This document shows, one piece after another, positions 236-63,937 of a stretch of DNA of 64,000 bases. Under the pieces are notes generated by a model that ran no database searches, was not told the origin of the DNA, and saw nothing but the letters and a program-made list of their open reading frames with translations. Every line of letters starts with the position of its first letter. Position 1 is the first letter of the stretch. Source of the stretch: Candidatus Latescibacterota bacterium. Lineage in GTDB: Bacteria; Latescibacterota; UBA2968; GCA-2709665. Both the position numbers and the translations under genes were made by a program. The stretch covers positions 3,296,001 through 3,360,000 of the forward strand of contig OZ242358.1 of the NCBI GenBank assembly GCA_965208835.1. Reading direction: 5' to 3'.

Positions 236-1048
236 TCACGCCTCGATCACTGGTCCCCAATCCGGAGCGAAATCGTTGGCCTGACTGTTGGATATGTTGA
301 TCAGGTTCCCGCCGTCGAAATCGACCCGGTAAATCTGTTGGCGGCCGTCCTCTTTGGCTGTAAAGACGATTCGCTCGCCGGTCGGAGACCACGAAATCTC
401 GCCAACGCCACCTTCAAGATTCGTGAGGCGTCTGGGATCGGACCCGTCTGCATTCATCACGTAGACCTGCGTGTCACCGTCGCGGTCCGATTTGAAGGCA
501 ATCCACCTGCCGTCCGGCGACCATGCAGGACCGTCGTCGTCGCTCTGCGAAACGTGCAGCCGCCGCTGGCCGCTGCCGTCGGGGTCCATGACGTATATCT
601 GCGACTTTCCATCGCGGTCCGTCGTGAACGCAATCTGAAAGCCGTCGGGAGAGTAAGTCGACTCGAGTTCGCGCGCCGGACGATCGGTCAGGTTTCGCTG
701 GTTGGAGCCGTCGCGGTTCATCGCGTAGATCTCCACGTTGTCGTCTCGATCGGTGGTAAAGATGATCGTCTGCCCATCCGGCGACCAGTGCGGACGTAGA
801 TCCGGAGCTGAATTACGGGTCAGTCGTCTCGGTCGGCTTCCGTCTGCATCGATCAAATAGATTTCTCCTTTGCCGTGACGGCGGTCGCAGTACGCGATGC
901 AGTCTCCGTCGGGCGACCATCGCGGATGATCTTCCTCCCACCCGTCGGTACGGGTAATGTTCGTCTGATCGCTTCCGTCCGGGTTCATTACGAAGAGATC
1001 GAAGGTCCCATCCCGATCGCTGACGAACGCGATCTTCGAAGCTTTCAC
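236..1048 (-). CDS. TolB-like PD40 (WD40-like) beta-propeller protein
   Basis: Repeated P.WSPDG..I.F.SDRDG...IY.M..DGS motifs. Confidence 0.9.
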   Translation of the reverse strand: MKASKIAFVSDRDGTFDLFVMNPDGSDQTNITRTDGWEEDHPRWSPDGDCIAYCDRRHGKGEIYLIDADGSRPRRLTRNSAPDLRPHWSPDGQTIIFTTDRDDNVEIYAMNRDGSNQRNLTDRPARELESTYSPDGFQIAFTTDRDGKSQIYVMDPDGSGQRRLHVSQSDDDGPAWSPDGRWIAFKSDRDGDTQVYVMNADGSDPRRLTNLEGGVGEISWSPTGERIVFTAKEDGRQQIYRVDFDGGNLINISNSQANDFAPDWGPVIEA

Positions 1049-1202
1049 AGGTGTACTCTCTCAGACGGTTGGTGTCAAATTGGGGCCCGGAAAACGTCCG
1101 GTTCGGCCCGGGAGCGAGGGCAGACTGTCTTCGGTCGCACGGCGCCCGTGGCCGATTTGGAATAATTCGGAAACGACGATTGTGGACAGGTGTGAACGGA
1201 GC

Positions 1203-1883
1203 TTATGCCTCGTGTTTCCTCAGCACGAGAAGCTCATCTTCCGTCGAAGCTTCGAGCGTAAAATTGAAACGGTTGACATCCACGCACATGTCGACGTCTC
1301 GTGGATTTATGCCCGGGTAGCCCTCTGCTGCTGCCTGACGGATATCGATCGCCGCCCTGGATTCGGATGCTCTGCGAAGGTACGGGGCCGGATCGGTTCC
1401 GGGATCTCGAATAAGTGCATCGATATATTCGGCGCAGGAGAGATCCTCTTCAGCCGTTCCGTCCTCGCCAGTTACCACATAGGTCAATTCATCGGGCACC
1501 AGATTGCGTAATCTCCGGGCGACTGCCGATGCGCAGACGAAGCCCGTGCAGATCAATGGCCTGCAGTGGCGGACGGCAACGGCGCCGATCGTTCCGGCGG
1601 TTGTCCGCTGCACGATGGTCTTGCCAAGGATATCCGCTCCCTGAAGGTCGGCGGGCGAATTGTACAGATCGAAACCCTCAGCCGGCGCGCCGTCCTTCAA
1701 TGCCAGAGATCCTGGAAATCGCGACTTGAGTTCAATGGCTTCTTCGAGCTCCTTGACCAGAATCATACGAGCGGCGCCAAGATGCAAGGCCCAGGCGGCG
1801 ACGGTATACGCCCGCATCACGTCGATGACAACCGCGGCACCCGAGACCGAGTCACACTCACCGATTCCTACAAACCTTGCCAT
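1203..1883 (-). CDS. 2-phosphosulfolactate phosphatase (ComB family)
   Basis: VVIDVMRA, NSP, TTAGT, EDLSCA motifs. Confidence 0.85.
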   Translation of the reverse strand: MARFVGIGECDSVSGAAVVIDVMRAYTVAAWALHLGAARMILVKELEEAIELKSRFPGSLALKDGAPAEGFDLYNSPADLQGADILGKTIVQRTTAGTIGAVAVRHCRPLICTGFVCASAVARRLRNLVPDELTYVVTGEDGTAEEDLSCAEYIDALIRDPGTDPAPYLRRASESRAAIDIRQAAAEGYPGINPRDVDMCVDVNRFNFTLEASTEDELLVLRKHEA

Positions 1884-1895
1884 GAAATAGTCCCT

Positions 1896-2717
1896 TCAAT
1901 GAACGCGTTCCGGATATGGATTCTCGGGAAGTCTAACTCCCCCTACCCAGGCTACATGGTGTGTGGTCTCGATTTCACCGGATGATGTCGTGTTGCGTTC
2001 AGCGAACAGTTTCAGGCGAGGGTCATCACAACTCGGAAGGGTTCCTCCGGCCCATGCCCAGATGGAACATTGGAACTGCAGCCATTCGTAGACATCCGGA
2101 TAGATTCTCTTTTCGACGACGTCGGCTGCAAGACGAATCCCTACACCGCTCCTCTCCATAGAGACCCGCATCTGGTCCTGAACCGTGATCGTCTGAGACA
2201 GCCGTGTGCTATTTCCAAAGACTTCCTTCACCTCTTGATGGTGCAGCTCCCCTATCAGTTCACAGAAGATGAAACCGCCCGGCTTCAGGACACGCAATGC
2301 AGCATTAACACCGAAGCTGTCATACCCGATGGGCGCGCGTTCGGAGTAGACGAAGTCGAAGGACTCGGGCTCCAGGACACGACCATCCGCGAGAAAATCG
2401 AGACGCTTGAACTCTACGTTTTGTACTTGTCTCGCTGCCCGGTCTTTTTCAGCCAGTTCGACGTGGCTGGGGTCGTTGTCGACCCCGAGCGCCGAGCCAA
2501 GGCGATCCGCATTCAGCAGAAGCGTCACACCGTTACCGCAACCGATGTCCAGCACCCGCATCTCCCGGCGAAACCGCGAAGCGATAACCTCGCTGGTCCG
2601 GGGCGCAATATGTCCGTCGGTGCGGTACTTCGCCGGCTTCGAGCCGTAGAAGGAGTGTTCCTGATTCAGGATCGACTTCAGACGGTCCCGGTCAAATTCC
2701 ACAGATCGAATCTCCAA
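1896..2717 (-). CDS. Class I SAM-dependent methyltransferase
   Basis: VLDIGCGNG, FDFVYS, LRVLKPGG. Confidence 0.9.
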   Translation of the reverse strand: MEIRSVEFDRDRLKSILNQEHSFYGSKPAKYRTDGHIAPRTSEVIASRFRREMRVLDIGCGNGVTLLLNADRLGSALGVDNDPSHVELAEKDRAARQVQNVEFKRLDFLADGRVLEPESFDFVYSERAPIGYDSFGVNAALRVLKPGGFIFCELIGELHHQEVKEVFGNSTRLSQTITVQDQMRVSMERSGVGIRLAADVVEKRIYPDVYEWLQFQCSIWAWAGGTLPSCDDPRLKLFAERNTTSSGEIETTHHVAWVGGVRLPENPYPERVH

Positions 2718-2780
2718 TCGTTCGTCGCGGAACTGAAGTCGCGAAAGGGATCAGACGTTTGTCGCGTCAAAAAGACCTAA

Positions 2781-3446
2781 CTATGACGGTTCGTTTCGAA
2801 TAGAGAAGAAATACGGATGCGCTTCTTTCTGTCCATCATCGGCCGCAATCCCGCCTCCAACGATACCTTCCTGTTCAATCTCAAACCCGGTTTCAGCGAG
2901 AATCTTCCTGTACGTTCCGGGCCCAAAGTTGCTCCAATACATGGTTTCGCCGAGGAAGTCATCCTCAGTGTATCCGGGCCCGTCATCTTTCGGTGCAACC
3001 GTAAACAGAAGGAGTCCGCCCGGCCTGAGCCATCGCGCGAACCGCCGAAAGAGTTCTCGATGCTCCTGTCTCGGAATATGGAAGATCGCGTAGTAGCTGA
3101 CAATTGCATCGAAGCAGGCCGCGGGGAATCCGGTTTCCAGAACGTCGGCGCGGATGAACGTGGCTGAAGGGACATTTTTTCTCGCCATACCGATCATGCT
3201 CGATGAGATATCGACCCCGGTAACTTCCAATTTATCAGCCAGTTGACGCGATACGGGAATGCCCGCGCCGCACCCGACGTCAAGGACTCCGGAGCCCGGC
3301 GCAAGGCGTTCTTCGATCAGATTGAGTTCCACACCGGCCGCGGGACTTCGCTGGTTCGCATAGTCCATCGCGCATCGGTCGTAGGCCGCCCTGACAAACG
3401 CTCGATAATCGGTTTCGGGATCGTTTGCAATCTTTAATGACATCAC
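2781..3446 (-). CDS. Class I SAM-dependent methyltransferase
   Basis: VLDVGCGAG, FDAIVSYYAIFH, WLRPGG. Confidence 0.9.
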   Translation of the reverse strand: MMSLKIANDPETDYRAFVRAAYDRCAMDYANQRSPAAGVELNLIEERLAPGSGVLDVGCGAGIPVSRQLADKLEVTGVDISSSMIGMARKNVPSATFIRADVLETGFPAACFDAIVSYYAIFHIPRQEHRELFRRFARWLRPGGLLLFTVAPKDDGPGYTEDDFLGETMYWSNFGPGTYRKILAETGFEIEQEGIVGGGIAADDGQKEAHPYFFSIRNEPS

Positions 3447-3950
3447 ACCTGCCCAAAAACGGATTTGATTAACTGCGAAAAGACGAATAGACGAGAATAC
3501 GAAACGGCGAAAAGGCGAAACTACGAATTACACGAATAAATGCGAATAACACCAGAAAACGAAAGACGAAACGGCGAATAGACTAAAAACCAGAAAAAAG
3601 GCTGAAAGACAAAAGCATAACTACGAATGGCGCGAATTTACACGAAAAAGACGGTGGTGATAGTCGTCCGCAGCCATTGGCGAAACGAGTCGGTCCTGCC
3701 TTCGCGAAGACTGTCATCCTGAGGACTTGCCCTGCTTGTGCTGAGCCTGTCGAAGCAAGCCTGCGGTCCCTGAGCTTGGCGAAGGGTCGAAGGGGCCCCC
3801 AGGCCAACGAAGGATCTACTGCAGCATCGGATCATTCACGTGGGATTTTCACGTGTCGATACCTGAGAGGCAGCACGTCCGCCCGCAGCACGGGACGGAG
3901 GCGGCGAGAGATTTTTCGACATCTCTCAGAATGACATGCGTTGCAACAAA
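3447..3950 (+). repeat. Composite repeat island: CGAA-rich tract, TGTCATCCTGAG...CTCAGAATGACA REP doublet and nested 23-nt units
   Basis: Blocks align with 58658-59242; inverted termini at ~3712 and ~3936. Confidence 0.8.
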
Positions 3951-4265: not shown

Positions 4266-6635
4266 TTACTCTTCACGAATGGCGTCTACGGGATTCAGCC
4301 TGGCCGCCCGAAGGGTTTGTCCGGCGACAATAAACATAACGATCGATAGAGAAAGCAACGTCGAATAAACAAACACATCCGCACCCATCTGAACTCGATA
4401 GGAGAAATCCAGAAGCCATAGGGACATCACATAATATGCGACAGGCCACGCCAGGAAACCGGCCACGAGACCCATGGGTGCGAACTTTCTCAATTGCATC
4501 GCCACAACCCGCCATTTCGATGCCCCCAGAACTCGACGAATGCCAATCTGTTTCTTGTCCCGTTCAACCGTCGATTTGACGAATCCCGCCAGACCGATTC
4601 CGGCCAACATCAGCGTGATGGAAACGCAAATGCCGACGATTTTCTTTAACGCGTGTTCTTCCGAGTACAATCGTTCGAACCGATCTGTCAGGAATCCGCT
4701 ATTCGACGGGAATGCCGTCCGGGGCGCAACTCGTGACCATGTCTGATGAATCCAGTCTACTGCATCGTCTGTACGTTCCGGATGGATTCTTGCCAGAATG
4801 GGGGCGCTACTTTCAACGAGGAAGATGCCAAGTGGTTCGACCGGATTTTGCTGTGACATGAAATGAAAATCCTCGACCACCCCCACAACGGTTCGACGTT
4901 TCCTCCACCAGGTGATTTCCTCCCCGATCGGCGAGTTCAATCCCAGCAGCCTTACCGCAGTTTCATTGAGAAGGCACGTGCGTTGATAATCATCCTGGAT
5001 CGAGAAATCTCTTCCTTGTTTGATTTCAATGCCCAGGGTCTCCAGGTAGCGACGACTCGCCGGGAGACTCCGGATGGATATATTGCCAGTAACTGAACGA
5101 CCTCGCGCCGTGTAGCTTTGCAGATTCCCTCCCGGGATGCCGCCGGATGCAACATCGAGAATGGATGGCGATCGTTTCAACTCCCGCTCAATCGTCAACC
5201 GTTGAGAAGCCGACAACCCCGGAGTCGAAAAATAGAAGACCTGTTCGGGCGACAGACCCAGTTTCTTCTTGTCGACGTGGTCCAGCTGCAAGTATACGAT
5301 TGAAGCAACAATCAGCAGAAGTGTGGAAATCCCAACCTGAAACAGGAACAGCACATTCCGCAACCACGCTGCCGTTCTGAATGCCAATCTGCCTTCCACG
5401 ATATTTGCGGGCTGTGCCCTGTGCAGCCAGAGAGCTGGAGACGTCCCAACTCCAACGAACAGAAGGAGGAGAAGCACGAAGCATGCTGCGATCACGCCGG
5501 CAACCTGTTCAAACTCGTAAGCCTGGACCGTGAGCGTGACGCGATTCAACCAGGGCAGACACAAAGTCGCGATCGTGACAGAAGCCAGCAGCACTATTGT
5601 GACGATCAAGAGAGAATCTGCCGCTATCTGAAAAACCGGTTCGGATCGCCTTGCCCCAAAAACCCTTCTGGCTCCAATTTCCCTCGAGCGGTCCAGAAAT
5701 CGGGCCGTGTTGAAATTCACAACATTGGTACAGACACCGGCCAAAATGAAAATTGCCAGGACTGCAGGGACGTAGATATAGACGGATCGGCTGAGACTCA
5801 CGTTGGCCGAAAACTGTTGATTCTGCGATGGGTCAAGATGGATATCCGTCAATGGCTGGAGAGAGAGCTGAAAGCGTTTGGCATCTCGATTTCCGAAGAA
5901 TCCCCGAATGAATTCGCGTTCCTGCGCAGCGAAGTCACTGGAGGTATCGCCTTCATCAAGCAGCACGTACGTGCAAACGGACATCCAGCGTTTGGAATTA
6001 AAATAGGTCGGGAGATGATTGGTAACACTGTCAATTGAGAACAGATAGTCAAAGGAAATGTGCGAATTGCGGGGAACGTCCTTCAGGACACCGGTTACCG
6101 TCAAGAAATACGATTTGCCCTTGAATTCCCCCGCTTTGATGACCCTTTCCAGTGGATCTTGATTCCCAAACAGCTCTCTCGACAGGGATTCTGTAATTAC
6201 AATTGAAAAGGGCCTTGCGAGCGCAGTCCGTGCGTCTCCCTTGACCAGTGGAAAGGTGAATATATCAAATACGCTGGCATCGACACTGTAACCCGACGCG
6301 CGGATATTGCGGTCCTGGAACTCGACCACTCTGTTAAAGCGGAAAAACCGGACGTAGTCATGGACAAAGGGATATTCTTCAGTCAGACGCGGTCCCATGA
6401 ACCACGCGGACTGATGCCAGATGCGTTCACCGTTATCGAATTTCTGACGCACTGACAGACGGAATATCCTCTCGACATTCTTGTGAAACCTGTCATAGCT
6501 GAGTTCATTCTGTACGTAGACTGCAATCAATAGTACGGCAGCGATACCAATGGCCAGGCTCGAGATGTTTATGGTTGATGCGACCTTGTGTCTTTTCAGG
6601 TTTCGCCACGAAACGATGAGGTGCGATTTCAACAT
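4266..6635 (-). CDS. ABC transporter permease, duplicated MacB/FtsX type
   Basis: ELSYDRFH, LQPLTDIHL, REIGARRVFGA, GIRRVLGAS, NPVDAIREE. Confidence 0.92.
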   Translation of the reverse strand: MLKSHLIVSWRNLKRHKVASTINISSLAIGIAAVLLIAVYVQNELSYDRFHKNVERIFRLSVRQKFDNGERIWHQSAWFMGPRLTEEYPFVHDYVRFFRFNRVVEFQDRNIRASGYSVDASVFDIFTFPLVKGDARTALARPFSIVITESLSRELFGNQDPLERVIKAGEFKGKSYFLTVTGVLKDVPRNSHISFDYLFSIDSVTNHLPTYFNSKRWMSVCTYVLLDEGDTSSDFAAQEREFIRGFFGNRDAKRFQLSLQPLTDIHLDPSQNQQFSANVSLSRSVYIYVPAVLAIFILAGVCTNVVNFNTARFLDRSREIGARRVFGARRSEPVFQIAADSLLIVTIVLLASVTIATLCLPWLNRVTLTVQAYEFEQVAGVIAACFVLLLLLFVGVGTSPALWLHRAQPANIVEGRLAFRTAAWLRNVLFLFQVGISTLLLIVASIVYLQLDHVDKKKLGLSPEQVFYFSTPGLSASQRLTIERELKRSPSILDVASGGIPGGNLQSYTARGRSVTGNISIRSLPASRRYLETLGIEIKQGRDFSIQDDYQRTCLLNETAVRLLGLNSPIGEEITWWRKRRTVVGVVEDFHFMSQQNPVEPLGIFLVESSAPILARIHPERTDDAVDWIHQTWSRVAPRTAFPSNSGFLTDRFERLYSEEHALKKIVGICVSITLMLAGIGLAGFVKSTVERDKKQIGIRRVLGASKWRVVAMQLRKFAPMGLVAGFLAWPVAYYVMSLWLLDFSYRVQMGADVFVYSTLLSLSIVMFIVAGQTLRAARLNPVDAIREE

Positions 6636-7749: not shown

Positions 7750-7908
7750 CGAATGTTCCTTTAAATCTGACCAGCCCCTGGTGCGCGACCACTGATTCCA
7801 TCAACTCGATCCACAGTGGCACGGATCACAATGCCCTATTACGCTGGCACGAGGGACCGGTAGAAGAATTCCCGATTATTCGATTCTTACAACAAGATAT
7901 CTACGCGA

Positions 7909-8222
7909 GATGCGTGCGTGTTTGGTCATGCCGCTTGCATTCGGTAATGTGTTGAAATCCCCCCACCGAATCAGCCGTCGCCGTCCCCTTCGACATTTCG
8001 ACAGGCTCAATGCAAGCAGGCTCAGCGACAACAGATTCAGGGCAGGTAATGGGTCTCCTGACAACCGCTTAATGACATCCAATGAACTGAATAATGCGTG
8101 GTCATTGAGCTTGTCGAAATGCCCGCCACTTAACAGCCCTTCGACAGGCTCAGGGCAACGCCTTCGTCTAGCATGGGAACCGGCTCGGCTTCTGCGACTC
8201 CCCCTCAAGGGGGGAGTGATTG
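7909..8222 (+). repeat. Palindromic repeat copy 2, expanded by several 23-nt units
   Basis: Aligns with 8-145; units at 7986-8031 (nested), 8099-8121, 8137-8159. Confidence 0.8.
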
Positions 8223-8317
8223 AACCGTTAAACGATCTCGCGTGTTCACTTCCACATACGTCGAGCGAGGCGGCTCCCTTAAACGAGCCAGACACTGGCA
8301 TATCATCTCCCCCTTGT

Positions 8318-9100
8318 TCAGGCTTTCCGGAGGATCACGTAGACATTTCCAAGTTCCCCGATCAGTTCCTCATCGTCTTCCAACGCTTCGAAATTCTCCC
8401 CGAATATTGCAGCGACTTCGAAACTGCCTGATCTGCGAGCCAACTCCTCAAGATCGGAGAAAAGCCAGAGCCTCAACGTATGACGTTCCTCGAAGCGATC
8501 TGTCTCTGCGTTCTGTTCGACCTCGAACGTACAAACCTGGTGACTCAATTTTGTTTCACTGTCTTCGTTCAGGATTCTCCACGACGTACTCACACGGATG
8601 CCGCCGCGTTCCAGCGCCCAGAAATCACCGGCCGGAAGTTCGCCTTTGTGAGCGAAGTTTAGATGGAGAACATAGACACCATTTTCACGGAGTGATGAAC
8701 CGGTCGCTCTCAGATGCGAGACGACTTCGTCATCCGAATGGAGGTATCCGATGCTGTTGATCGAATTCACCGCGGCATCGAATTCGCCCGGTATTTCAGC
8801 GGATGCCATTTCGGCCTGCATCACTCGGGCGTTCTTCCCATCCATTGCAATTGAGTCCCTTGCAAATTGTACCATGACGGCCCTGTCGTCATAGCCTGTG
8901 ACCTGAAACCCGGAGCCAGCCAGCGCTCGCACCATTCGCCCCGTTCCACAGGCCGGTTCGAGAATATGTTTCACCGGGATGCGATTCAAAGACGCGTTTG
9001 AAGAAGCGTATCTCGTCAGAGAGATCCCATGAGAAGGCAATGTCATAGATCTCCGGATGGCTGTAGAGTTCGAACGTGTCTCTCTCTTTGTGCGTGATCA
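8318..9100 (-). pseudogene. SAM-dependent methyltransferase, frameshifted near 8980
   Basis: N-terminus LYSHPEIYDIAFSWDLSDEIRFFKRVFESH is in a different frame from PVKHILEPACGTGR. Confidence 0.75.
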
Positions 9101-9181
9101 GTTTTTGCCACCTTTCACTCGACGTTTTCTACTGCAACAAAACCCGTGCCAGCAAACTGCACCGCGCAGGGATCACAACAA

Positions 9182-54736: not shown

Positions 54737-54822
54737 GCCTGACGGTCCGGAACTCACGAACCCGTCGAAGCCGGATTGGGCGGAGGCCGGGACGGCCGAA
54801 GCGGTGGGTACTCGTGTTATGC
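54737..54822 (-). repeat. attC-like site (86 bp) overlapping the upstream stop codon
   Basis: Minus strand GCATAAC (TAA is the stop of 54817-55860)...GTCAGGC. Confidence 0.6.
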
Positions 54823-55860
54823 GAAAGCGAGTTCGCTGGATACGCTATCCGGTTCTTTCGAGACCACCTCGGCCCATATGGATGCTGTTTGATCCAGTAA
54901 CAACTTGAGTTGAGACTCTTGTAGATCCTCATTGAGGAGCCACGAACCCGTTTCACCACTTCGAACTGCATACCACGTATAGGCAAACAGGACATCGCGT
55001 TTGTCATCGAGCTCCGTGATCTCCTCGCCCACGGCCAGGCGGGATGGATACGACGTGACGTGCCGCTCTGCAACATCAGCGGGAGCCCTGGCAAACCTTG
55101 CTTCTACCTCATCCGCGGTAAGAGAAAGCAGTCGGATGAGGCGATTCGCAATTCCTTCTTCCTGGTGCTCGTGAGCCAGAACGGAAAAACGGGTGAAGAC
55201 TCTTCCGAAGGACCGATCTCCGTGCCCCCACCTTTCCATCAGATATGGGACTGTCACACGCGCGAGTTCCTGAATAGAGATCCCTGCCTCAATCAGACGA
55301 CCTGCGTCCAGATATGACTGAACCCGCTGAGCGAGAGCGGTTACACGTCTGACTCGCTCGATTTGGCGCGCATGGACAACCGTTGGGTTAAATCGACCAT
55401 CGGAGAGCAGCACAACAAATGCGGGAGTATCGCAATCCTCAGACCCGTGAACTGATTGACCGAGATGGCTCTTGTCAGTCGCATGGAAAGTTCTTTCATC
55501 GGCCATCAGTTCATCCAGGTGACGCTTGCCTTTGATCAGGTCGTCCGCCTCGTCGGCTGTAAAATGAAGTCGCCCAGCGTCAACAGACGTCGGCCACGTG
55601 TCTCGAGCCCATTCTCTCGTGATGGCTAACGCAAGCTCGTCCACTCTTTTTGGAAGACTGCTGTCCGCCTCCCTGGACGCAATGTAGATGAGGTCTATAT
55701 CAGATAAAGGCCACGCCACTCCTCGACCAATGCTACCCCCGAGAATTACACCCGCAACGCCAGGAGCAGATGCGATCCGTTCGATGGCTTCAACGGTTCG
55801 CTTCTGGAGAACAAGCTCCCAGTTTTCCAGGTGTGCCCGGAAGAGATCCGCCCTGAACAA
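54817..55860 (-). CDS. Nucleotidyltransferase domain protein
   Basis: GGSIGRG....SDIDL. Confidence 0.75.
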   Translation of the reverse strand: MFRADLFRAHLENWELVLQKRTVEAIERIASAPGVAGVILGGSIGRGVAWPLSDIDLIYIASREADSSLPKRVDELALAITREWARDTWPTSVDAGRLHFTADEADDLIKGKRHLDELMADERTFHATDKSHLGQSVHGSEDCDTPAFVVLLSDGRFNPTVVHARQIERVRRVTALAQRVQSYLDAGRLIEAGISIQELARVTVPYLMERWGHGDRSFGRVFTRFSVLAHEHQEEGIANRLIRLLSLTADEVEARFARAPADVAERHVTSYPSRLAVGEEITELDDKRDVLFAYTWYAVRSGETGSWLLNEDLQESQLKLLLDQTASIWAEVVSKEPDSVSSELAFA

Positions 55861-55875
55861 ATCGAACTCACTTTC

Positions 55876-55966
55876 GCAAAACGTCTCGCCGGATTGCGAA
55901 CCCGACCAGCCGGTTGCCGAAGGCCAGCGCGGCGATGGCGCCGCAGCGCAAAACGTGTTGTTATCG
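55876..55966 (-). repeat. attC-like site
   Basis: GCAAAAC...GTTATCG; homologous to 50281-50368. Confidence 0.6.
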
Positions 55967-56003
55967 GACGATGCATTTCGGCCGCGTCTGACTATGCAGT
56001 CCG

Positions 56004-56612
56004 CTAATCCGACAGGAACCCTTGCCAGCGATGACCTTCAGGATACAAGACTTCCAACCCGGCTCCCAACCATCTCTTTGACTCGGCGGACATCAGCGGC
56101 AGGCACGTTTCAAAGTCCAGATCATCTTTCGAACGAGGATTCCCGGCTTTGTACAGCAGTTGAACCTCGATCCGTATGCAGGGAACACTTCTGTATGCGA
56201 CGATCAAGTCTCCTCGTTGCCCGCCAATCAGTCTGCTGCGTTTGCTGAACCACCTGTCGCCTTGGCTCTCAGTTAACATGATCTGAAGCTGCCATGCCTT
56301 TATGCTGGTATGGCCCCATATGTCAAATATCCCGTAAGGCAAGTACTCTGATTCCGCCCAGGGTCGCAATGAACCAGCCGGATCAGCCGCGTACAGATGC
56401 CAATTCGAGAGCCAGCGCTGTACTTCGAGTTGCTGATCCCGGTACACGATGACGTCTATATCGCCGTGGCCCCTGACGCGCTTTCCCGCGAACTGCTCAA
56501 CCGCATAGCCGCCAGCGAGTCCCCACATGAAAGGAGCGCCAGCGAACAATTGCGTCAATTCCTGGACTGACAAGGGTTGCCACTGGCTTAGGGGAATCTC
56601 AGGAGTGGTCAT
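56004..56612 (-). CDS. ANT(2'')/Lnu-like nucleotidyltransferase
   Basis: WGLAGGYAVE...RGHGDID; LLYKA...KDDLDF. Confidence 0.85.
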   Translation of the reverse strand: MTTPEIPLSQWQPLSVQELTQLFAGAPFMWGLAGGYAVEQFAGKRVRGHGDIDVIVYRDQQLEVQRWLSNWHLYAADPAGSLRPWAESEYLPYGIFDIWGHTSIKAWQLQIMLTESQGDRWFSKRSRLIGGQRGDLIVAYRSVPCIRIEVQLLYKAGNPRSKDDLDFETCLPLMSAESKRWLGAGLEVLYPEGHRWQGFLSD

Positions 56613-56760: not shown

Positions 56761-58575
56761 TTACAGATCTTCATTCGGCATCTGCGGATGTTGGGCAGGA
56801 AAGAGCGCATCCAGGAGCTCAGCCGCATCGCCAGTAAGCAACATATCCGACCGATCGGCAATCTCAATTGGCGCTTCTTTTCCAATGATGATTTGTGCAA
56901 ACTCATGACCACTTTCAACGCTGTTGTCTGCTTTGCCACCAGGTTGCGCAGAGACTTCACCGTTGTCGATGGATAGAATTACAGACTGATCCGGGATGGA
57001 GATCTGTAATGTGCCTATGAAATCTCTGAGATGCGACTTTCGTAATCGTCGAGATAACTCCGGTGCGATCTTGGTCAGCGTCGTCTCAAGGTTGATGATG
57101 CGAATCTGGTTCCCCGTCCGACCATTGTGGTTTCTGGCTGAATAAAGATGAGGCAACTGCCGCACGCGTCGTGCCAGCGCGCTGCGCCAGGGTAGTCGGA
57201 CGAATTGCACCCTGGGTCCCCGGTATTGCCGGGCAAGTTGCCCTAAAACGCGCAGGATCTGTTCCGGATCACCGGCTGAATCCGTATGACGCAGGTCGCG
57301 CCCCTCGTGATCTTTCTCTGTATTCGGGCCATCGTAGAGATAACCCACCGCACGTCCGGTTTTATCGTTGAAAATGTACGCCGTCCACGGATCGTCGTCT
57401 TCCGGCGGGCATTTGCCTCTTCGGTATGTTGGACGGACGGTCGTGCCGGTCAATCCGTCGTGCCATCGATTGTGAAGTTCAGCCAGGTCTCTGCGCCCGT
57501 GAATCACGTTGACATGTACTTCCCCCAGCTCTATTTCCGGGGCTGCTTCGGGCAGGTGCTCGGTGTCTATAAAATACGTCTCCTGATCCGGCCAGGCAAG
57601 CACGTAGCCGAAATTCGCAAAGCGATCGAGCGGTTCGGTACGTGTACACGACATATCATAACCATGGGCATACATGGCGTCCAGCGCCGCCTGAATTGTT
57701 GCCGCGTAGATCCCCTCATCCCGATAGTCGGGATGCACGGTCGGCAGATTGATGCCCCCGGTCCGAACCGTTGCGCTGCCGATACGCATCGAGAGATCAT
57801 AAATGCCCGCGTGTGTGACCACATCACCATCCAGCGTTCCGATCCGCGACGTCTGCCAGTCGTAGTGACTGTGCGCGATGCGTCCGGCGCGACACTGACG
57901 GCCGATGGCGTTCCAGCGCCTGTCCAGCAACTCATAGATACCTTCGCTATGGTTCGTTTGATCAGGCGCCAGGATTTCTCGCACACGGTCAATGAACCGA
58001 TCGTCCCGCGAAGGCCGGTTCTCATGCATATTGTCCTTCACCATATCGAATAGCCTTTCCTTGAGCCGTTTCCGCGCAGACCGCAGACGGTTCTTCACGA
58101 CGGCGACTGACACACCCAGAAAAGCGGCCACTTCCCGCTGTGAATAATCCGAGATGTAGAACAAAGACACGGCCTGACGCTCGTTTTCGTGCAACGTGTC
58201 GATCGCTTCTCGCACAAGGCACCGCATCTCGTTTTCTTCTGTTGTTCGATCCGGATGTTGCTCTTCCGATGCGATCTCGACGAGTTGCTCCATCGATACA
58301 ATCTCGACCTTCTTACCCCGGCGCGTCATCCGATCGCAATGTTTGAACACGATCTTGCGTAACAAAGCAGGAAAGGCGAAGACGTCGTACACCCGCTCCA
58401 GATTCACCCACGCCTCTGTAAACGCCTCCTGCGCCGCGTCCTGCGCCAGGTGAAAATCCCTCAACAATGCGTACCCGTATCCCACCGCGAGATCTTGAAA
58501 GTGTGCCACAATCTGCTCGTAGGCCTTCAGATCTCCTCGCTTTGCGCGTTCAAATATCGGCTTCAGTGTCTCCAT
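56761..58575 (-). CDS. ECF sigma-70 factor fused to an Eis-like GNAT/SCP2 module
   Basis: LAQDAAQEAF; EVAAFLG...VKNRLRSAR; GGI...VHPDYRDEG; C-terminal SCP2-like segment. Confidence 0.88.
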   Translation of the reverse strand: METLKPIFERAKRGDLKAYEQIVAHFQDLAVGYGYALLRDFHLAQDAAQEAFTEAWVNLERVYDVFAFPALLRKIVFKHCDRMTRRGKKVEIVSMEQLVEIASEEQHPDRTTEENEMRCLVREAIDTLHENERQAVSLFYISDYSQREVAAFLGVSVAVVKNRLRSARKRLKERLFDMVKDNMHENRPSRDDRFIDRVREILAPDQTNHSEGIYELLDRRWNAIGRQCRAGRIAHSHYDWQTSRIGTLDGDVVTHAGIYDLSMRIGSATVRTGGINLPTVHPDYRDEGIYAATIQAALDAMYAHGYDMSCTRTEPLDRFANFGYVLAWPDQETYFIDTEHLPEAAPEIELGEVHVNVIHGRRDLAELHNRWHDGLTGTTVRPTYRRGKCPPEDDDPWTAYIFNDKTGRAVGYLYDGPNTEKDHEGRDLRHTDSAGDPEQILRVLGQLARQYRGPRVQFVRLPWRSALARRVRQLPHLYSARNHNGRTGNQIRIINLETTLTKIAPELSRRLRKSHLRDFIGTLQISIPDQSVILSIDNGEVSAQPGGKADNSVESGHEFAQIIIGKEAPIEIADRSDMLLTGDAAELLDALFPAQHPQMPNEDL

Positions 58576-58657
58576 CTCGATCCTCTGATTGTGAAGGCCT
58601 TCACCGATAATATCCCATTTGGACTGCATTGGGTGTACTTATCCTGAGTTTTTCTCA

Positions 58658-59242
58658 TACCTGTCCAAAAACGGATTTGATTAACTACGAAAATCGCGAA
58701 ATAAACGGCTGGAAAAATCGTCCAAGACCATTGGCGAAACGAGTCGATCCTACCTTTGCGAAGACTGTCATGTTGAGGACTTGCCTCGAGCGTGTCGAAA
58801 GGCCATCAGGCAGTCGATGCGTCCGCGCACAAGCTCATCTACAAAGGGCATGTAGTACACGTACAATCGAGAATACGGGAGATTCTTCGCTGCGCTGTGA
58901 TTGACGCGCTTTGCGATTGCCCGTGGTGAAACGCTGAGCCCACACCTTCGCAGAGCATGTTATCCTGAGAAGGCCCGCGCGCTCAGAATGGCATGTTTAA
59001 AGATTGTCATGCACGTGGCTTCCCGTTGTCATCCATAGGACCTGCCCTGAGCGTGCTTGCATTGAGCTTGTCGAAATGTCGAAGGGTGCCCCCAGGCCGA
59101 CGAAGGATCTACTGCAGCATCGGTCCCTCCCCGTGTGATTTGCACGTGTCGATACCTGAGGGGCAGCACGTCCGCCTGCAGCGCGAGACCGAAGCGCCGA
59201 CAGATGCTTAACTCCGCTCGGAATGCCATGTATTGCAACAAA
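58658..59242 (+). repeat. Composite repeat island, copy 2
   Basis: Shares blocks with 3447-3950; 23-nt units at 58780-58802 and 59041-59086 (nested). Confidence 0.8.
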
Positions 59243-59384
59243 CGCGAGAGTGCGAGACCGTGCCGTTCGATGGGATCCGAACTGCCTGTGGTGTATTCGA
59301 GACGAGTAGACGGAAAGGAATGGCGGGAGGACTTTGAGTGGCTGGTCTGTTGGGGTTTCTTGTCTTTGCCTTCTATATGCATCT

Positions 59385-59438
59385 GTCTATCGACAAGCTT
59401 GCCTAGACTCATATTGCACGTTATCTGGAGACGGTGTC
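59385..59438 (-). pseudogene. 5' stub duplicating the leader and start of the methyltransferase at 53892-54659
   Basis: CTATCGACAAGCTTGYCTAGACTCATATTGCRCGTTATCYGGARACGGTGTC occurs in both places. Confidence 0.8.
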
Positions 59439-60564
59439 AGGCCGGGGTTCCGCGCCAGAAATCGTTGTACGCCGCCAGCGGCCCTTCACCGTGCGGCCCG
59501 GTAGCCAGGTCGAGCCCCCCGAAGAGATAGACGGCCCCGCCCCCCACTGCCATAACGGGGATTCGCTTCACACCGGGACGTTTGGCGGCGACAGAATAAT
59601 CCTTCGCGCCGTTGTGTGGATACAGACAGTCCCACCGGCCGGCTCGAAGATCGTACTGCCACAGATCGTTCAACTGGGGGTGCTCCCCTTCCCCTCCTGC
59701 AAATCCTCCGAACAGATACAGGTGATCTCCGATCACAGCGTATCCCAGCCCGTACCGGGGGGAAGGCCGTGCAACGTCATCCGGCCGGTTCTCCTCAATG
59801 CAGGTCCAGGCGCCTCCGCCGGGATCGTATTCCCACAGATCGTTGTAGAACTCCGGCGTTCGATCCTGGCTGTCCCGGCCGCCCCACAGGTAGAGCCTGC
59901 CGTTCCAGCCGACCAGCACGGGACAGTACCGTTTCGGCGGCCAACCGTTGCGCCCATTCGATGCAGGCCCCAGGTGCTCCCATTTCCCGGCCGGCGCCTT
60001 GTAGCTCCACAGCTGTGCATGCGTCATCGCGCCGTGTCCACCCATCACATACAGGCAATCGCCCAGAACGGCCGCGCCCCTACTCCCCGATCCGGCGGGA
60101 CGATGCCCATCCGCCATTATTCCCGATGTGCGCCCGTCGTCGGGCTCTATCAGCTCCCACGAGGCAGTCTTCGGATCGTAGGCCCAGAGATCGTTCAGCT
60201 TGATCTCCCCCTTGCCGGGGCCCCGCACTGAGGACCCGCCAAAAAGATAAAGCCTGCCGTTCAAGGGCACCCAGGTCGTGAGCTTCCGGGTACACGGTCT
60301 GGTATCGGACGGTTTGAACCCGATGCGCCCATCGTGGTCTTCCAGCCGCGTCCACCTGCCTCGACCCGGGTCGTAACGCCACAGGTCGTTCAGTGAACCC
60401 TGGACAGAGAGATCTCCAGGCCCTTTCGGCTGGCCGTACATCACTTTTATTCCCCCGAACAGATAGACGCAACCATCGCAGCTCAACATCCCGCCGAAGG
60501 CCGCCCGCCTGCAGGGTACATCCTCGGCCTGTTCCTGGTCGGGATGCAGCAGTTCCCACTTCAT
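59437..60564 (-). CDS. Kelch repeat protein
   Basis: Repeated LYLFGG....NDLW.YD....W. Confidence 0.9.
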   Translation of the reverse strand: MKWELLHPDQEQAEDVPCRRAAFGGMLSCDGCVYLFGGIKVMYGQPKGPGDLSVQGSLNDLWRYDPGRGRWTRLEDHDGRIGFKPSDTRPCTRKLTTWVPLNGRLYLFGGSSVRGPGKGEIKLNDLWAYDPKTASWELIEPDDGRTSGIMADGHRPAGSGSRGAAVLGDCLYVMGGHGAMTHAQLWSYKAPAGKWEHLGPASNGRNGWPPKRYCPVLVGWNGRLYLWGGRDSQDRTPEFYNDLWEYDPGGGAWTCIEENRPDDVARPSPRYGLGYAVIGDHLYLFGGFAGGEGEHPQLNDLWQYDLRAGRWDCLYPHNGAKDYSVAAKRPGVKRIPVMAVGGGAVYLFGGLDLATGPHGEGPLAAYNDFWRGTPA

Positions 60565-60608
60565 CGTGGACCTCCGCACGGCCTGACATGTGATTCTGCG
60601 AGATGGCT

Positions 60609-62066
60609 TCAGGACGCGTAAAGAGCAAACAGCCTGGCGCGGTCCAGGTACACTTTAACCTTGACCCCGCCGCGAGCCTGTGAGACCATCTTCTCTTCGA
60701 GTCCACCTTCGTTATCCCCGACTGCGCCTTGCGGATCGCTTTTCCATTGTACCCGGTATTCTGTTTCATTCGCCGAGAAGGGGATGCAGTCTTCTTTGCC
60801 GAAACCCGGCACGACCCGGTCAAACGGATCGACGACCTCCACTCGAATTGAACCGCCGGTCGCATCGGCGTTGATCCACAACGAAGTGGGCCGGATACCC
60901 AGCGGGACCGTGGTCACCACCCCCTGCGCCTCCGTCTTCAGACAGACCAGCCGGTCCTTTTCGATCTTTGCCAGATTGATTCCCCGCCGGGATTCTTCAT
61001 CGTAGCGCGTCCCCTCGCCGTGCAATTCATTTGAGCAGCTGTGATAGACCCAGATCTCGTCGCCGCGGACAAAGGGGGAATGAGACGGATAGACACTTCC
61101 GCTGTCGTGGCTGCCGCGGGGGCCGCATTCAAGAATGGGTTCGCGGTTGCCCGCCCGGTGCCAGGTCCGGCCGTTCTTCGAGTAGGTCAACTGAATGTCC
61201 ATCCGGTTCATCCATTCCGGCATCCAGTCTTCGATCCGGTTCCGGGCGATCCACCCCTCGTTGAGCGTGTGAAACACGGACAGGAAGCCGATGCGAAAGC
61301 CGCGATACGCCACCGAACTCATTCCGTAAAACTCCCGGTCCTGCGGGGGATCGAACTCATCGGGTGCGACGATGATCTTGCGCGGGGTCCAGTTTTCGAA
61401 ATCATCGCTTTCAGCCATGCAAATGATGCGCACGTTAGGCCGGCCCCGCAGAAAGACGACGTAGCGGTGGATTCTTGTATCCCAATAGGCGACCAGGTGG
61501 GTATCCGAGCCCTGTGGAATGACCGGATTGAGCCAGCGCCGGGGCACGTCCCAATGAATCCCGTCGGCAGAATACGCCACACAGACCGGCTGGACGATAC
61601 CGGCGAATATCATGTCTCCGCTCTGGAACATAAAGAGCATCTTGTAGCGTTTGGCGGGGTCTGTTTCGATGGGGTCTTTCATGACTCCTGTCCCGGCCCC
61701 CCATCTCAGGAAGGGAAAGACCAGGTTGTTCTCTTTGCTGCCGGCGTCCTCGACGAGGTTGAGGACGGGTTTTTCCCAGTGGATCCCGTCCTTCGACACG
61801 GCGTAGGCCAGTCCGTCCGCACTTTCGCCACGCGCATCGCTCAATCTCCGGCTCACGCCGTACCACATCTTGAAGATATTTTCGTCTTCGTCGTACAGGA
61901 CGTTGACGTAGCCGCCGATCAGCCACTCCTCCTCCCAGGCCCGATCCTTCTCAATCAGAGGCTGGTGCGAAACTTTCTTTGCGGGTACGACCCCTTGCAC
62001 GACGCCGTCGAGATTCTCTACATACGTATTGTCAATGAACAGAAAGGCCGATTTCTCGTCCGTCAT
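60609..62066 (-). CDS. GH32/43-like five-bladed beta-propeller protein
   Basis: FKMWY, YAVSKDGIHWEKP, YSADGIHW, LTYSKNGRTW. Confidence 0.75.
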   Translation of the reverse strand: MTDEKSAFLFIDNTYVENLDGVVQGVVPAKKVSHQPLIEKDRAWEEEWLIGGYVNVLYDEDENIFKMWYGVSRRLSDARGESADGLAYAVSKDGIHWEKPVLNLVEDAGSKENNLVFPFLRWGAGTGVMKDPIETDPAKRYKMLFMFQSGDMIFAGIVQPVCVAYSADGIHWDVPRRWLNPVIPQGSDTHLVAYWDTRIHRYVVFLRGRPNVRIICMAESDDFENWTPRKIIVAPDEFDPPQDREFYGMSSVAYRGFRIGFLSVFHTLNEGWIARNRIEDWMPEWMNRMDIQLTYSKNGRTWHRAGNREPILECGPRGSHDSGSVYPSHSPFVRGDEIWVYHSCSNELHGEGTRYDEESRRGINLAKIEKDRLVCLKTEAQGVVTTVPLGIRPTSLWINADATGGSIRVEVVDPFDRVVPGFGKEDCIPFSANETEYRVQWKSDPQGAVGDNEGGLEEKMVSQARGGVKVKVYLDRARLFALYAS

Positions 62067-62114
62067 TGGTTTCTCCAGGTATTGAATTGCTCGATGATCA
62101 TCAAACGAACTCAC

Positions 62115-62204
62115 AGGGCTTGTCGAAGCGCCCGCGTTTCGGCACCCTTTTCCTTCGCCGACCCTTCGACCCTTCGACAGGCTCAGGGAGCGGCTAAGGG
62201 CGCC
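62115..62204. repeat. Inverted pair of hairpin units with a nested 23-nt insert
   Basis: GCTTGTCGAAGCG ... CCCTTCGA[CCCTTCGACAGGCTCAGGGAGCG]GCTAAGGG. Confidence 0.7.
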
Positions 62205-62311
62205 CGGTCAATGTAGTGGAAAAAGAGGTAGACTTTCGGGTGCTGCCCGTAATGTGTGTCAGTGCGGCCGGGGTGGTGGTTGGGGCTTCCTGGACGCAAG
62301 CCTGGAGCGTT

Positions 62312-63175
62312 CTACTTCAAAGTCTCCACAGCTCTCAAGAGGGATTCAGATGTTACCGAGTAGCCCAGGCGGGCTTCAAAATTGAGAATTGCGACTCGCG
62401 TTTTCCACAGTCCATCCAGAGTCTCAGCCGCTTCATATGTTGTGGTACAGTCGGTTACAACGATAGGCATGTAACCCAGGCGACTCATATTTCTTATGCC
62501 ATGGGGCTTATTCATCAGACATTCATCAGTCTCAAAGCCCATATAGAACAGAGTCTTGATACGCTTTTCAGCAAGGAGCCGATGAAACTGGTCTCCGGAA
62601 TACACCAGCAAATCGCCGTCCTGGGGTTCAACGGGTTCAGGTATCGATATTTCGTCATAGAGTCTCCCCTGAATATTCGCCCAATCCTCCATCCGCCATA
62701 TCAATTCGCTATGCTGACTCTTCCAATTGTCCACCCACTCTTGAGGAGGCCATTGGCCGTTTCGATTCTCTTTTGAGTTTTCGGAAGATGCAGAATTCTC
62801 AGATAGGCTCTGGCGCTCTTCATCGGTTGTCGACAGATTCCATTGAGGGTATTTTTTCAGAAAATCCGATTGATTGCAGTGAAAAATCTGGAAGTCCATA
62901 TCGCGAAGCGTATTTACCAGTGGCCCGACTGTTGTCTCAGTAATTCGGCGTTTTCGTTCAGCGTGGGAGCGACCTCGTTCAAAACTGCGATCACCAAGTT
63001 CTTCGTCATAGGGGCCATCATCCCAGCCAAAATTCCAAAAATCAACCAGCGCAATCCCAACTTCCTTGACGTCAAAAGTAAACGGGACACGACGCCGACA
63101 GAATGTCTCCTCCGTGAATGCCAATCCATCCTGGGGACTGCGTGGCGTATATTCAAGATCAACCGTGAAACCCAT
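62312..63175 (-). CDS. Isochorismatase/cysteine hydrolase family protein
   Basis: LVDFWN, YMGFETDEC, VVTDCT. Confidence 0.75.
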   Translation of the reverse strand: MGFTVDLEYTPRSPQDGLAFTEETFCRRRVPFTFDVKEVGIALVDFWNFGWDDGPYDEELGDRSFERGRSHAERKRRITETTVGPLVNTLRDMDFQIFHCNQSDFLKKYPQWNLSTTDEERQSLSENSASSENSKENRNGQWPPQEWVDNWKSQHSELIWRMEDWANIQGRLYDEISIPEPVEPQDGDLLVYSGDQFHRLLAEKRIKTLFYMGFETDECLMNKPHGIRNMSRLGYMPIVVTDCTTTYEAAETLDGLWKTRVAILNFEARLGYSVTSESLLRAVETLK

Positions 63176-63286
63176 AGGATGGCCTCGCTTTTGGACGCAG
63201 GACGCGCCGTCAGGTCTCTGGGCCGCATTGCACATATCGTTCCGCCGCGTCCAGGAGCTGGCTGCCGGGATGTTGTTGAAACAGTA

Positions 63287-63937
63287 CTAAGTTTGCATAA
63301 GCTCATGGATCAGCGGCGGAACCTGGCGTATATCGGTCAGTTGCCGCAGGGCGCCGGTGAAGTCCAGGCCGCGCGTCAGGCCCTGCGGTATGACGATGCA
63401 GCGCAGCCCGGCCGCAAGAGCGGCGCGCAGCCCCCGGTCCGAGTCTTCAATGGCGACGCATTCGGCGGCGCTGAGGCCGTTTTTCCGCATGGCCGTGAGG
63501 TAGGGCTCGGGGTCGGGCTTGGAATGCAGGTAGTCTTCACGCATGAGCGTGAAATCAATGTAGTCCAGCATGCCGGTAGCGGCGTGGATGATCTCAAAGT
63601 GCTCCCGCCGCGAACTGGTGACGATGCCCATACGCACCGTACCGTGGAGTTGGCGCAGCACCTGGCGCGCGCCGCCGATGACGGGCACGCCGGCCCTCAC
63701 GAGTTCGGTGAAGCGGGCGTTGCGCCGGATGCGGGCGGTCTCCAGCGTCTGTTCGTCTATGCCGTGTTCGGCCGCAATCCTCCTGAGGCCGTCGCTGGAC
63801 TTGAGGAAGAACTCGATGAAACGGGCTTCGCTCAGGCCGACGTCGAGGGTTTCCAGGATTTCGCGGCAGGCCTGGAAGTACAGGCCTTCGGTGTCGACCA
63901 GGACGCCGTCGTTGTCCCAAAGAATGGCTTTCAGCAT
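63287..63937 (-). CDS. HAD family phosphatase
   Basis: WDNDGVLVDTE, VTSS, KPDPEPY, IEDS. Confidence 0.93.
   Translation of the reverse strand: MLKAILWDNDGVLVDTEGLYFQACREILETLDVGLSEARFIEFFLKSSDGLRRIAAEHGIDEQTLETARIRRNARFTELVRAGVPVIGGARQVLRQLHGTVRMGIVTSSRREHFEIIHAATGMLDYIDFTLMREDYLHSKPDPEPYLTAMRKNGLSAAECVAIEDSDRGLRAALAAGLRCIVIPQGLTRGLDFTGALRQLTDIRQVPPLIHELMQT

Follow-up and report, generated by a model that had tools for sequence, protein, structure and literature searches.

The co-oriented gene run and its attC-like sites

The window analysed here, a stretch of 64,000 nt of contig OZ242358.1 from a Candidatus Latescibacterota bacterium, carries a run of approximately 60 co-oriented accessory genes (236–63937, minus strand) and, in the spacers between them, a recurrent element of about 95–110 nt with the architecture of an integron attC site. 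The GC content is close to 55% across the 64 kb. A greedy call of open reading frames (ORFs) of at least 60 amino acids returned 60 on the minus strand and 18 on the plus strand, and a Pfam family (E<=0.001) was matched by 56 of the 72 minus-strand ORFs submitted versus one of the 10 plus-strand ORFs (10830–12152). A gene caller scored on codon usage and trained on the genes of the window gave 60 minus-strand and two plus-strand calls; the second of the latter (51663–52133, score 5.7) has no Pfam match and overlaps a minus-strand Flavodoxin_2 gene. About 60 of 61 credible genes in the window lie on the minus strand.

This orientation could be taken to mark an ordinary variable genomic island on the leading strand, whose palindromes would be terminators or resemble repetitive extragenic palindromic (REP) elements, and whose differences between relatives would stem from homologous or illegitimate recombination. 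The plus-strand GC skew is negative throughout the window. Resolved by codon position, however, the coding-strand skew is +0.212 at position 1 and -0.009 at position 3, and it is 0.000 in non-coding DNA; being confined to codon position 1, it is a consequence of coding orientation and not evidence on replication, and there is no compositional pointer to a replication-strand explanation. Besides the lack of a replication-type skew at third positions or in non-coding DNA, the extent of the co-orientation argues against such an island, since it exceeds even a per-gene bias of 0.8 (P about 2e-5, in an arithmetic that treats the genes as independent of operons).

For comparison, species-representative genomes were scanned with the last gene of the window, a HAD hydrolase (63287–63937), which gave 80 loci, each taken as 10 kb on either side of the HAD homologue. 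The closest of these (L001–L017 and L019, 83–95% protein identity) belong to metagenome-assembled genomes (MAGs) labelled Gemmatimonadota or Candidatus Latescibacterota, and several derive from complete chromosomes. The host of the window is an uncultured bacterium close to MAGs carrying either label.

The spacer element was found by reading the spacers in gene orientation, together with the junctions in relatives. It has the box YTAAC on the 5' side and GTTA on the 3' side, together with a covarying inner stem, an unpaired spacer and a tip that branches. An nhmmer profile, iterated to collect members, recovered 39 elements, all in gene orientation; when extended in the 3' direction, nearly all of them end in a conserved block with the GTTA box, which in some members is exactly complementary to the 5' YCTAAC box. 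From 28 full-length members, 22 were aligned after dropping two without a recognisable 3' box, two with large internal insertions and two duplicates. A covariance model built on the attC-type structure (R1) matched 11 times in the window at E<=0.01, always on the minus strand, and the search of the window and the close loci at this stage gave 57 hits, 57 of them in gene orientation. The model rebuilt from these 57 hits (R2) identifies 12 sites of 89–111 nt in the window at E<=0.01, each of them (12 of 12) on the minus strand and located in a spacer within the 19.5–56 kb interval; a thirteenth is cut by the right end of the window. In the 18 close loci R2 finds 69 sites, again without exception in gene orientation, with the highest density in L008 (13 sites within 20 kb), and in the 62 unrelated loci (1,024,764 bases) it finds none.

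All sites of the window lie on the minus strand, and E values are those of R2 unless stated otherwise. Just upstream of the HAD cassette, the cut site is represented by its 3' part with a degenerate 3' box (63960–64000; nhmmer E=0.0034, half-profile E=0.088). The strongest site (55873–55971; 79 bits, E=5.9e-20) lies between the genes 56004–56612 and 54817–55860 and keeps its GTT, whereas the next (54734–54827, E=1e-8), between 54817–55860 and 53892–54659, has a degenerate 3' box. A further site with GTT (52902–52998, E=5.2e-12) separates 53040–53855 from 52106–52873, and the cassette downstream of it sits behind a different site in L004. The site upstream of an APH gene (50276–50373, E=3.3e-11; ORF listed as 49454–50353) is degenerate in its 3' box, and the weak site between 44109–44651 and 42978–43991 (44019–44117, E=5.1e-4) in both boxes. 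GTT is kept at 40738–40836 (E=3.5e-12), in the 456-nt spacer upstream of 39986–40579, and at 39869–39962 (E=9.9e-14; bottom-strand fold z=-2.7), between that gene and 39027–39770. The 3' box reads GTC both in the site between 39027–39770 and 37875–38771 (38810–38903, E=1.2e-11) and in the one upstream of an FMN-reductase gene (36755–36865, E=1.3e-10), the true start of which lies near 36713; in the long ORF the Pfam domain begins at residue 67. A weak site with a degenerate 3' box (33754–33842, E=0.007) precedes the APH gene 32782–33753. The last two sites, both with GTT, flank the GNAT gene 19634–20431: one upstream of it with a diverged 5' half (20432–20523, E=2.7e-10), the other between it and 18119–19432 (19533–19626, E=1.9e-5). 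Four ORFs were over-extended in the 5' direction across spacer sites, with listed starts near 20503, 33849, 36918 and 50353.

Site structure, crossover point and recombinase

The structure tested on the 22-site alignment comprises an outer R stem, a spacer, an inner L stem and two tip hairpins. It pairs 77.2% of the cells, compared with 32–41% when the partners are slid by one to three columns, and its covariation score is 0.249 compared with 0.06–0.09; none of 500 shuffles reached the observed pairing and covariation. RNAalifold independently predicts the L stem and both tip hairpins. Of the 22 sites, 21 retain the C-G pair of the AAC/GTT triplets, and the A-T pairs survive in 20 and in 17 of them; the larger alignment of 57 sites has the 5' box consensus T-A-A-C and the 3' box consensus G-T-T-A. 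Pairing in the 8-bp L stem reaches 83.5% over the 22 sites, and six of its eight pairs have varied on both sides; both hairpins of the branched tip show compensatory changes. In this lineage-specific imperfect palindrome the order of elements is a 5' box ending in AAC, a 4-nt spacer, the 8-bp inner stem, the branched tip, the 3' arm of the stem, a 7-nt spacer and a 3' box starting with GTT. These are the R''/R' boxes with AAC and GTT at the base of a palindrome, and the L''/L' inner stem, unpaired spacer and variable tip, of an attC site. The bottom strand of the site at L007:4755–4853 folds into the R stem, spacer, L stem and a three-way tip (z=-6.6), and the best sites of relatives reach fold z values of -5.7 and -6.6.

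One attC feature is lacking. Known attC substrates have in common two to three extrahelical bases per site, that is, unpartnered single bases on the R''-L'' arm (PMC2727003, Bouvier et al. 2009), which are described as being recognised by IntI (PMC2095811). In our alignment, which was fitted to our own structural model, no such bases are seen on this arm: of the 57 sites, 49 have two L arms of 8 nt each and 53 have two R arms of 10 nt each, and the sole asymmetry is that of the central spacer, which measures 4 and 7 nt in 39 of the 57 sites and is longer on the R'-L' arm. The aadA1 attC, used as a control, folds with two single-base bulges, whereas sites of L007 and L017 fold with uninterrupted L stems.

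Co-oriented accessory genes continue over the full 10 kb upstream of HAD in relatives, that is, past window position 64000. Between relatives, blocks of 85–95% protein or DNA identity stop at the boundaries of single genes: 62312–63235 is absent from L001, L012 and L014, the kelch gene 59437–60579 is duplicated in L006, 53892–54659 is relocated in L001, L012 and L014, and genes from 42–50 kb of the window adjoin HAD in L004, L007, L009, L010 and L017. Five anchors (HAD, 60609, 59437, 56761 and 56004) keep their order, and the combination of kept anchors with single-gene differences indicates that the array is vertically inherited and varies cassette by cassette. The earlier note, which proposed a cassette array, had pointed to conserved gene order among relatives as an observation that would speak against it; what we find is conservation of the anchors amid cassette-level insertions, losses, moves and one duplication, so that the proposal is for the most part not refuted. 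At the ends of L019 the gene orientation at first appears mixed, a candidate exception that we rejected as opposite-strand calls inside two long plus-strand ORFs or as transposases of the insertion sequence (IS) family IS3. The HAD protein itself is 85–90% identical between the high-GC loci L011, L013 and L015 (GC 0.69–0.71), which have mixed gene orientation and no attC-like sites, and the window and L001–L010 (GC 0.55–0.59); such identity across differing base composition suggests a recent horizontal transfer of this single gene.

The point at which cassettes were joined could be located by comparing 80 sites with full flanks, excluding one truncated hit (L017:1–53). In 22 pairs the same site is followed by the same downstream DNA; 21 pairs combine different sites with the same downstream DNA (six distinct cassettes); and eight combine the same site with different downstream DNA, one of them being an indel artefact and the rest representing five independent cases once orthologous repeats are removed. 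In every case printed, amounting to 11 independent comparisons, similarity switches within the 3' box between G and TT (G↓TT), and for the 56004, 54817, 53892 and HAD cassettes this is seen in two to four contexts each. The crossover at G↓TT, with cassettes beginning in TT, is thus observed by comparison of relatives, and the pattern is, as far as sequence comparison can tell, the signature of integron-type cassette exchange. The coincidence of breaks with one triplet in 11 independent comparisons speaks against an ordinary island.

With IntI1 of plasmid R100 as query, a six-frame search of the window and all 80 loci (1.43 Mb) retrieved no canonical IntI. It did detect a tyrosine recombinase in L007 (1191–1958, in the IntI-like gene at 1176–1988), 34% identical to IntI1 over 300 aligned positions (E=8e-39), as well as C-terminal remnants of 86 aa, which occupy a common position in L007, L008 and L017; L010 has a shorter remnant at the DNA level. 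No integrase was found in the upstream 10 kb of seven relatives by Pfam on 65 of their 81 greedy ORFs, the other 16 being short, or minus-strand ORFs overlapping better plus-strand ones, and covered by the six-frame IntI1 search. The L007 recombinase gene runs in the direction of the cassettes and is located upstream of the array, about 900 nt before the first site of its locus. The gene (856–1988 with its N-terminal part) is broken within about 25 nt near 1165–1190, its N-terminal ~105 codons being in another frame; intact database relatives measure about 376 aa (P0001, 94% identity; P0002, 82%). ORFs of 214 aa that are 97% identical to it are also present in the database on at least 10 contigs of related genomes, and the lineage may widely carry a form that is broken or shortened at its N terminus.

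The catalytic R, K, H, R, H and Y of this family align with those of IntI1. The family has an extra N-terminal region of about 95 aa and lacks about 41 residues across IntI1 positions 184–250, including in the intact relatives P0001, P0002, P0008 and P0023. This gap presumably corresponds to the additional domain of IntI. This domain, described as "surrounding patch III", defines IntI (PMC9668308), and no intI with the IntI-specific domain was found beside the array, in the window or in the 1.43 Mb. The NCBIfam integron-integrase model TIGR02249 scores the family at 206–232 bits in two stretches (cut-off 265), the XerA/integron-integrase model at 205–228 bits (cut-off 220) and the XerC/XerD models at 175–191 bits. 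Source labels for its members range from tyrosine-type recombinase/integrase and site-specific tyrosine recombinase/integron integrase to XerD, and many members sit on short contigs.

About 135 nt 3' of the recombinase gene are conserved in five of five copies, up to G↓TT. Three different cassettes start at this point, one of which follows an ordinary site in L010. The recombinase-proximal site thus appears to behave like an attI, or like an attC belonging to the recombinase unit; no recognisable site was found at the 5' junction of the recombinase remnants. A tblastn search of plasmids with an intact relative returned, among the matches listed, homologues of at most 45% identity in varied contexts, which is uninformative on the role of the protein.

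Cargo, damaged genes and inserted repeats

Pfam assigns the cargo to S-adenosylmethionine (SAM) methyltransferases, GNATs, NUDIX and VOC/glyoxalase proteins, APH kinases, ankyrin, kelch and PD40 proteins and sulfotransferases. Neither tRNA nor tmRNA genes were found in the window, nor any Rfam family at gathering thresholds, and PADLOC on 32 cassette proteins reported no defence system, its matches being generic ones at the level of domains (ABC ATPase, ankyrin and a short stretch of SIR2). A SIR2-domain protein (15929–16987, minus strand) has an N-terminal region of about 175 aa that matches no known family, and its sole PADLOC match is weak and partial (PDC-S65; 33 residues, E=3.6e-6). There are two sigma-70-like proteins of the extracytoplasmic function (ECF) type with long extensions: a 622-aa protein fused to a GNAT-like region (56761–58629, minus strand), and the 440-aa product of the sole credible plus-strand gene (10830–12152; Pfam Sigma70_r2/r4, codon score 28.2), which has a long C-terminal extension.

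Two kinds of gene damage were found. An AAC(3)-family acetyltransferase gene (17075–18037, minus strand) is a pseudogene with an in-frame stop at 17312–17314, which separates Pfam profile positions 1–162 (before the stop) from 169–232 (after it). The ORF 59029–59412 (minus strand) shares its first ~50 nt and the DNA upstream of them with 53892–54659 (repeat D15, 92% over 52 nt) and is a stub, as it diverges from that gene thereafter. The description in the earlier note, drawn from the letters of the sequence, is confirmed: all credible genes but one on the minus strand, methyltransferase, GNAT, NUDIX and VOC-type accessory cargo, interspersed pseudogenes and stubs (at least one of the former and one of the latter) and no recombinase in view, tyrosine recombinases being absent from the window both by Pfam on 82 ORFs and by six-frame tblastn with IntI1. 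Its statement that neighbours are unrelated apart from one three-gene ABC unit needs qualifying. The ABC unit (30130–32747) is there and most neighbours are indeed unrelated, but two APH genes (49454–51468) and two ankyrin genes (44989–47574) form paralogue neighbourhoods.

Several other repeats occupy the spacers. The long non-coding spacer 3443–3925 shares approximately 470–550 nt of repeats (D1, D5, D10, D18) with 58630–59205, comprising a 26-nt transposon-end-like motif (two matches, none expected by chance) and REP-like repeats, and has a run of 8-nt tandem repeats at 3472–3520. The same transposon-end motif lies upstream of two cassettes in L012, and these repeats are probably a family of miniature inverted-repeat transposable elements (MITEs) that travels with cassettes or inserts upstream of them. 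Copies of a short REP/MITE-like repeat, its core resembling CCCTGAGCCTGTCGAAGGG, are dispersed over spacers in either orientation (81–109, 8134–8162 and 62167–62195 in one; 3758–3796, 51339–51377 and 59050–59088 in the other), and in L006:569–699 and L002:4594–4747 the repeat interrupts an attC-like site within the first of its tip hairpins. Another spacer element, about 200 nt long and unrelated to the attC-like family, occurs in gene orientation at 15297–15401 and 36035–36139, and in L004 downstream of HAD and of the 52106 homologue. An element of about 80 nt that starts with GGGGTTCAAC, contains a hairpin and is likewise outside the attC-like family occurs in L004, L006, L007, L009, L010 and L017 between the homologues of 60609–62114 and 59437–60579, which in the window, L001, L012 and L014 adjoin each other with a spacer of 29 nt. 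The left end of the window (4–182) is repeated as a block of spacer and ORF start at 7905–8258 (D7 88%, D4 72%), the latter copy carrying an extra ~175 nt. The array of L019 contains two IS3-family transposase genes (rve, HTH_21; 4672–5517, minus strand, and 8670–9515, plus strand), one of which interrupts a metallophosphoesterase cassette adjoining HAD.

Interpretation of the array

We consider it quite probable that the window is part of a very large chromosomal integron-type cassette array of at least 64 kb that is old, largely sedentary and eroding. This is the reading proposed by the earlier note, and it draws support from sites confined to the gene strand, from covariation in the R and L stems and from whole-cassette differences that break at G↓TT. 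We regard the array as old and largely sedentary because its anchors keep their order across species-level relatives, and as eroding because of GTT losses, site-less junctions, pseudogenes and stubs, and IS and MITE insertions; the age that the note had supposed fits the loss of GTT in four of the 12 window sites. The comparison between relatives shows that recombination at G↓TT of the 3' box swaps cassettes, adds and removes them and creates second copies. The enzyme would be a tyrosine recombinase acting on the folded single-stranded site, as in integrons, and the platform with the recombinase end would lie beyond window position 64000.

In its long co-oriented run of mostly single-gene accessory cassettes the window resembles the Vibrio superintegron and the clusters of attC sites lacking integron-integrases (CALIN). 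With sedentary integrons and CALIN it shares a crossover at G↓TT and sites that are uniform within the lineage and carry AAC/GTT boxes, L boxes, a spacer without pairing and a variable tip; with sedentary integrons, a vertically kept array with cassette-level differences; and with CALIN, a stretch without an integrase. It differs from them in lacking extrahelical bases, with a 4/7-nt spacer asymmetry in their place, and in its many site-less junctions. A CALIN is defined for IntegronFinder as at least two attC sites spaced by less than 4 kb, without an intI in the surrounding 4 kb (PMC4889954, Cury et al. 2016), a spacing shown by the sites at 55.9/54.8/52.9/50.3, 40.8/39.9/38.8/36.8/33.8 and 20.5/19.6 kb, as located with our own lineage model rather than that of IntegronFinder, and the window itself is a CALIN-like stretch. 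The same source describes a sedentary chromosomal integron as having more than 19 attC sites, or as being present in all genomes of a species (PMC4889954); the window has 12–13 sites, in an array that runs off both of its ends. Gemmatimonadota are listed among integron hosts (PMC8618304), and a large array is mentioned on the 1.1-Mb replicon of Gemmatirosa (PMC9024848). In our literature search, integron, attC and Latescibacter appeared together in no paper.

A number of observations weigh against the array reading. Only 12 full sites and one cut site are found among 57 spacers, or about one junction in five; 14 of the 57 spacers are shorter than 40 nt and thus too short for a site, and R2 finds no site in 1–19.5 kb or 20.6–33.7 kb of the window. 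The 1–19.5 kb region is unexplained by sites, so that a cassette reading of the left third of the window is an extrapolation. Searches with the 5' and 3' halves of the profile added only three to four marginal remnants (28357–28329, 13595–13573, 23331–23309), and the weak R2 matches (0.01<E<=5) have no strand preference (three minus, nine plus). A strict model-free pattern of AAC and GTT with an L stem was no more frequent in spacers (0.13/kb) than in coding DNA (0.18/kb), although it also missed all 12 R2 sites and is hence uninformative; a first hairpin regular expression, superseded by the profile searches, gave too few matches and no strand bias. Against the class-1 integron region of plasmid R100, the best R2 match has E=0.3 and the aadA1 attC itself E=5.7, and a DNA search with the best site found no match in 72,556 plasmids. 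The 3' box of the 12 window sites is GTT in six, GTC in two and neither in four, and the bottom-strand fold z of three of them is +0.07, -2.7 and -2.3. The 3' end of the HAD cassette is followed by no more than a short site remnant with an internal deletion, and in L012 and L014 even that is missing. Finally, the HAD-homologue loci L016, L018 and L046 are largely co-oriented yet without a repeated spacer element, so co-orientation by itself is not diagnostic; a repeat search of these three and of L005, also co-oriented, found no attC-like family. The cassette array of the earlier note is accordingly borne out by sites between 19.5 and 64 kb, but with about 13 of 57 spacers occupied, and with sites and a recombinase that depart from the canonical definition.

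As one attC feature and the defining IntI feature are wanting, we treat the system as integron-like in its working, yet as a distinct variant. Tentatively, and with less than even confidence, we suggest that these arrays represent a distinct integron-like branch, in which bulge-free attC sites are served by an IntI-related recombinase with an N-terminal domain of about 95 aa that never had, or has lost, the I2 domain. The recombinase would be encoded in the direction of the cassettes with an attI-like site directly 3' of it, and the choice of strand and orientation would rest on the asymmetric 4/7-nt central spacer. Counterparts of this layout exist: in "inverted" integrons, for example of Treponema, the integrase is co-oriented with the cassettes (PMC4889954), and in archaeal integrons attI lies immediately downstream of intI (PMC9668308). 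The L007 recombinase similarly points with the cassettes, and its conserved downstream site ends at G↓TT; Treponema-type and archaeal integrases, however, carry the IntI-specific domain, whereas the L007 family lacks about 41 residues there and has its N-terminal extension. Among the titles and abstracts of the matches listed in our literature search, no system of integron integrases without the additional domain was described.

A comparison with Xer recombination is also instructive. XerCD is described as lacking I2-like domains and the CTX phage site as lacking extrahelical bases (PMC4792948, Escudero et al.), so that a tyrosine recombinase without an I2-like domain and a presumably folded site without extrahelical bases are common to both systems. 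The arrays differ from Xer elements in having dozens of structured sites of about 100 nt in one orientation, AAC/GTT boxes and cassette exchange, and the L007-type recombinase scores higher on the integron-integrase model than on those of XerC/XerD. Other Xer-dependent elements are the pdif modules; the sites here are not 28-bp dif-like sequences.

The L007-type protein is a putative cassette recombinase. The strongest competing explanation, which we nevertheless think rather unlikely, is a canonical integron whose standard IntI lies elsewhere, more than 10 kb upstream or at another locus, with the L007 recombinase a passenger mobile element or a landed cassette. Most CALINs have no intI nearby (PMC4889954), and several properties of the recombinase suit a passenger: its family has a wide distribution and, like mobile elements, is often found in many copies or on very short contigs; the L007 copy is split in two frames, and elsewhere only 3' remnants occur inside arrays; these arrays attract insertions such as the IS3-type transposases of L019; and a distant plasmid homologue (H12), among the matches listed, adjoins an IS91 transposase. 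Set against this are the lack of a canonical IntI throughout the 1.43 Mb searched, and sites without the extrahelical bases that a canonical IntI reads, which fit a recombinase without that domain. Moreover, three different cassettes begin at the G↓TT of the conserved site that closes the recombinase unit, which implies that the unit shares the same recombination chemistry.

REP elements are palindromes of 20–40 nt associated with a RAYT (Y1 HUH) transposase. The attC-like sites resemble them as repeated intergenic imperfect palindromes in fixed orientation relative to genes, but at about 100 nt, with a two-level structure supported by covariation and with breaks between relatives at the GTT triplet, they differ, and no RAYT, HUH or Y1 transposase was found by Pfam among the 82 ORFs of the window. 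A leading-strand island, for which one may cite the mostly site-less and often very short spacers, a TTCAA microhomology at the HAD/60609 junction and the co-oriented loci devoid of such elements, is very improbable given sites of about 100 nt with AAC/GTT boxes and covarying two-level pairing, unlike REPs of 20–40 nt, and the missing transposase.

Among natural gene-capture machines integrons are understood best, and two coupled features define them: the extrahelical bases of the folded attC site, and the IntI-specific domain that reads these bases and blocks the second strand exchange. If the sites and the recombinase described here are truly partners, cassette capture needs no lock of I2 and extrahelical bases, and the origin of integrons from Xer-like recombinases becomes directly testable. 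Acquisition of I2 by a Xer-like ancestor has been proposed as a possible origin of integrons (PMC4792948, Escudero et al.); if the arrays do form a branch of their own, they would be a living example of that Xer-like, I2-less stage, or a parallel solution. Surveys of the standard kind, which require an IntI C-terminal profile and use attC models trained on bulged sites, could overlook such arrays in uncultured phyla or assign them to the wrong class. On the conservative reading, the window extends very large sedentary arrays to a poorly known lineage, with a cargo that includes ankyrin and kelch proteins and enzymes that modify small molecules.

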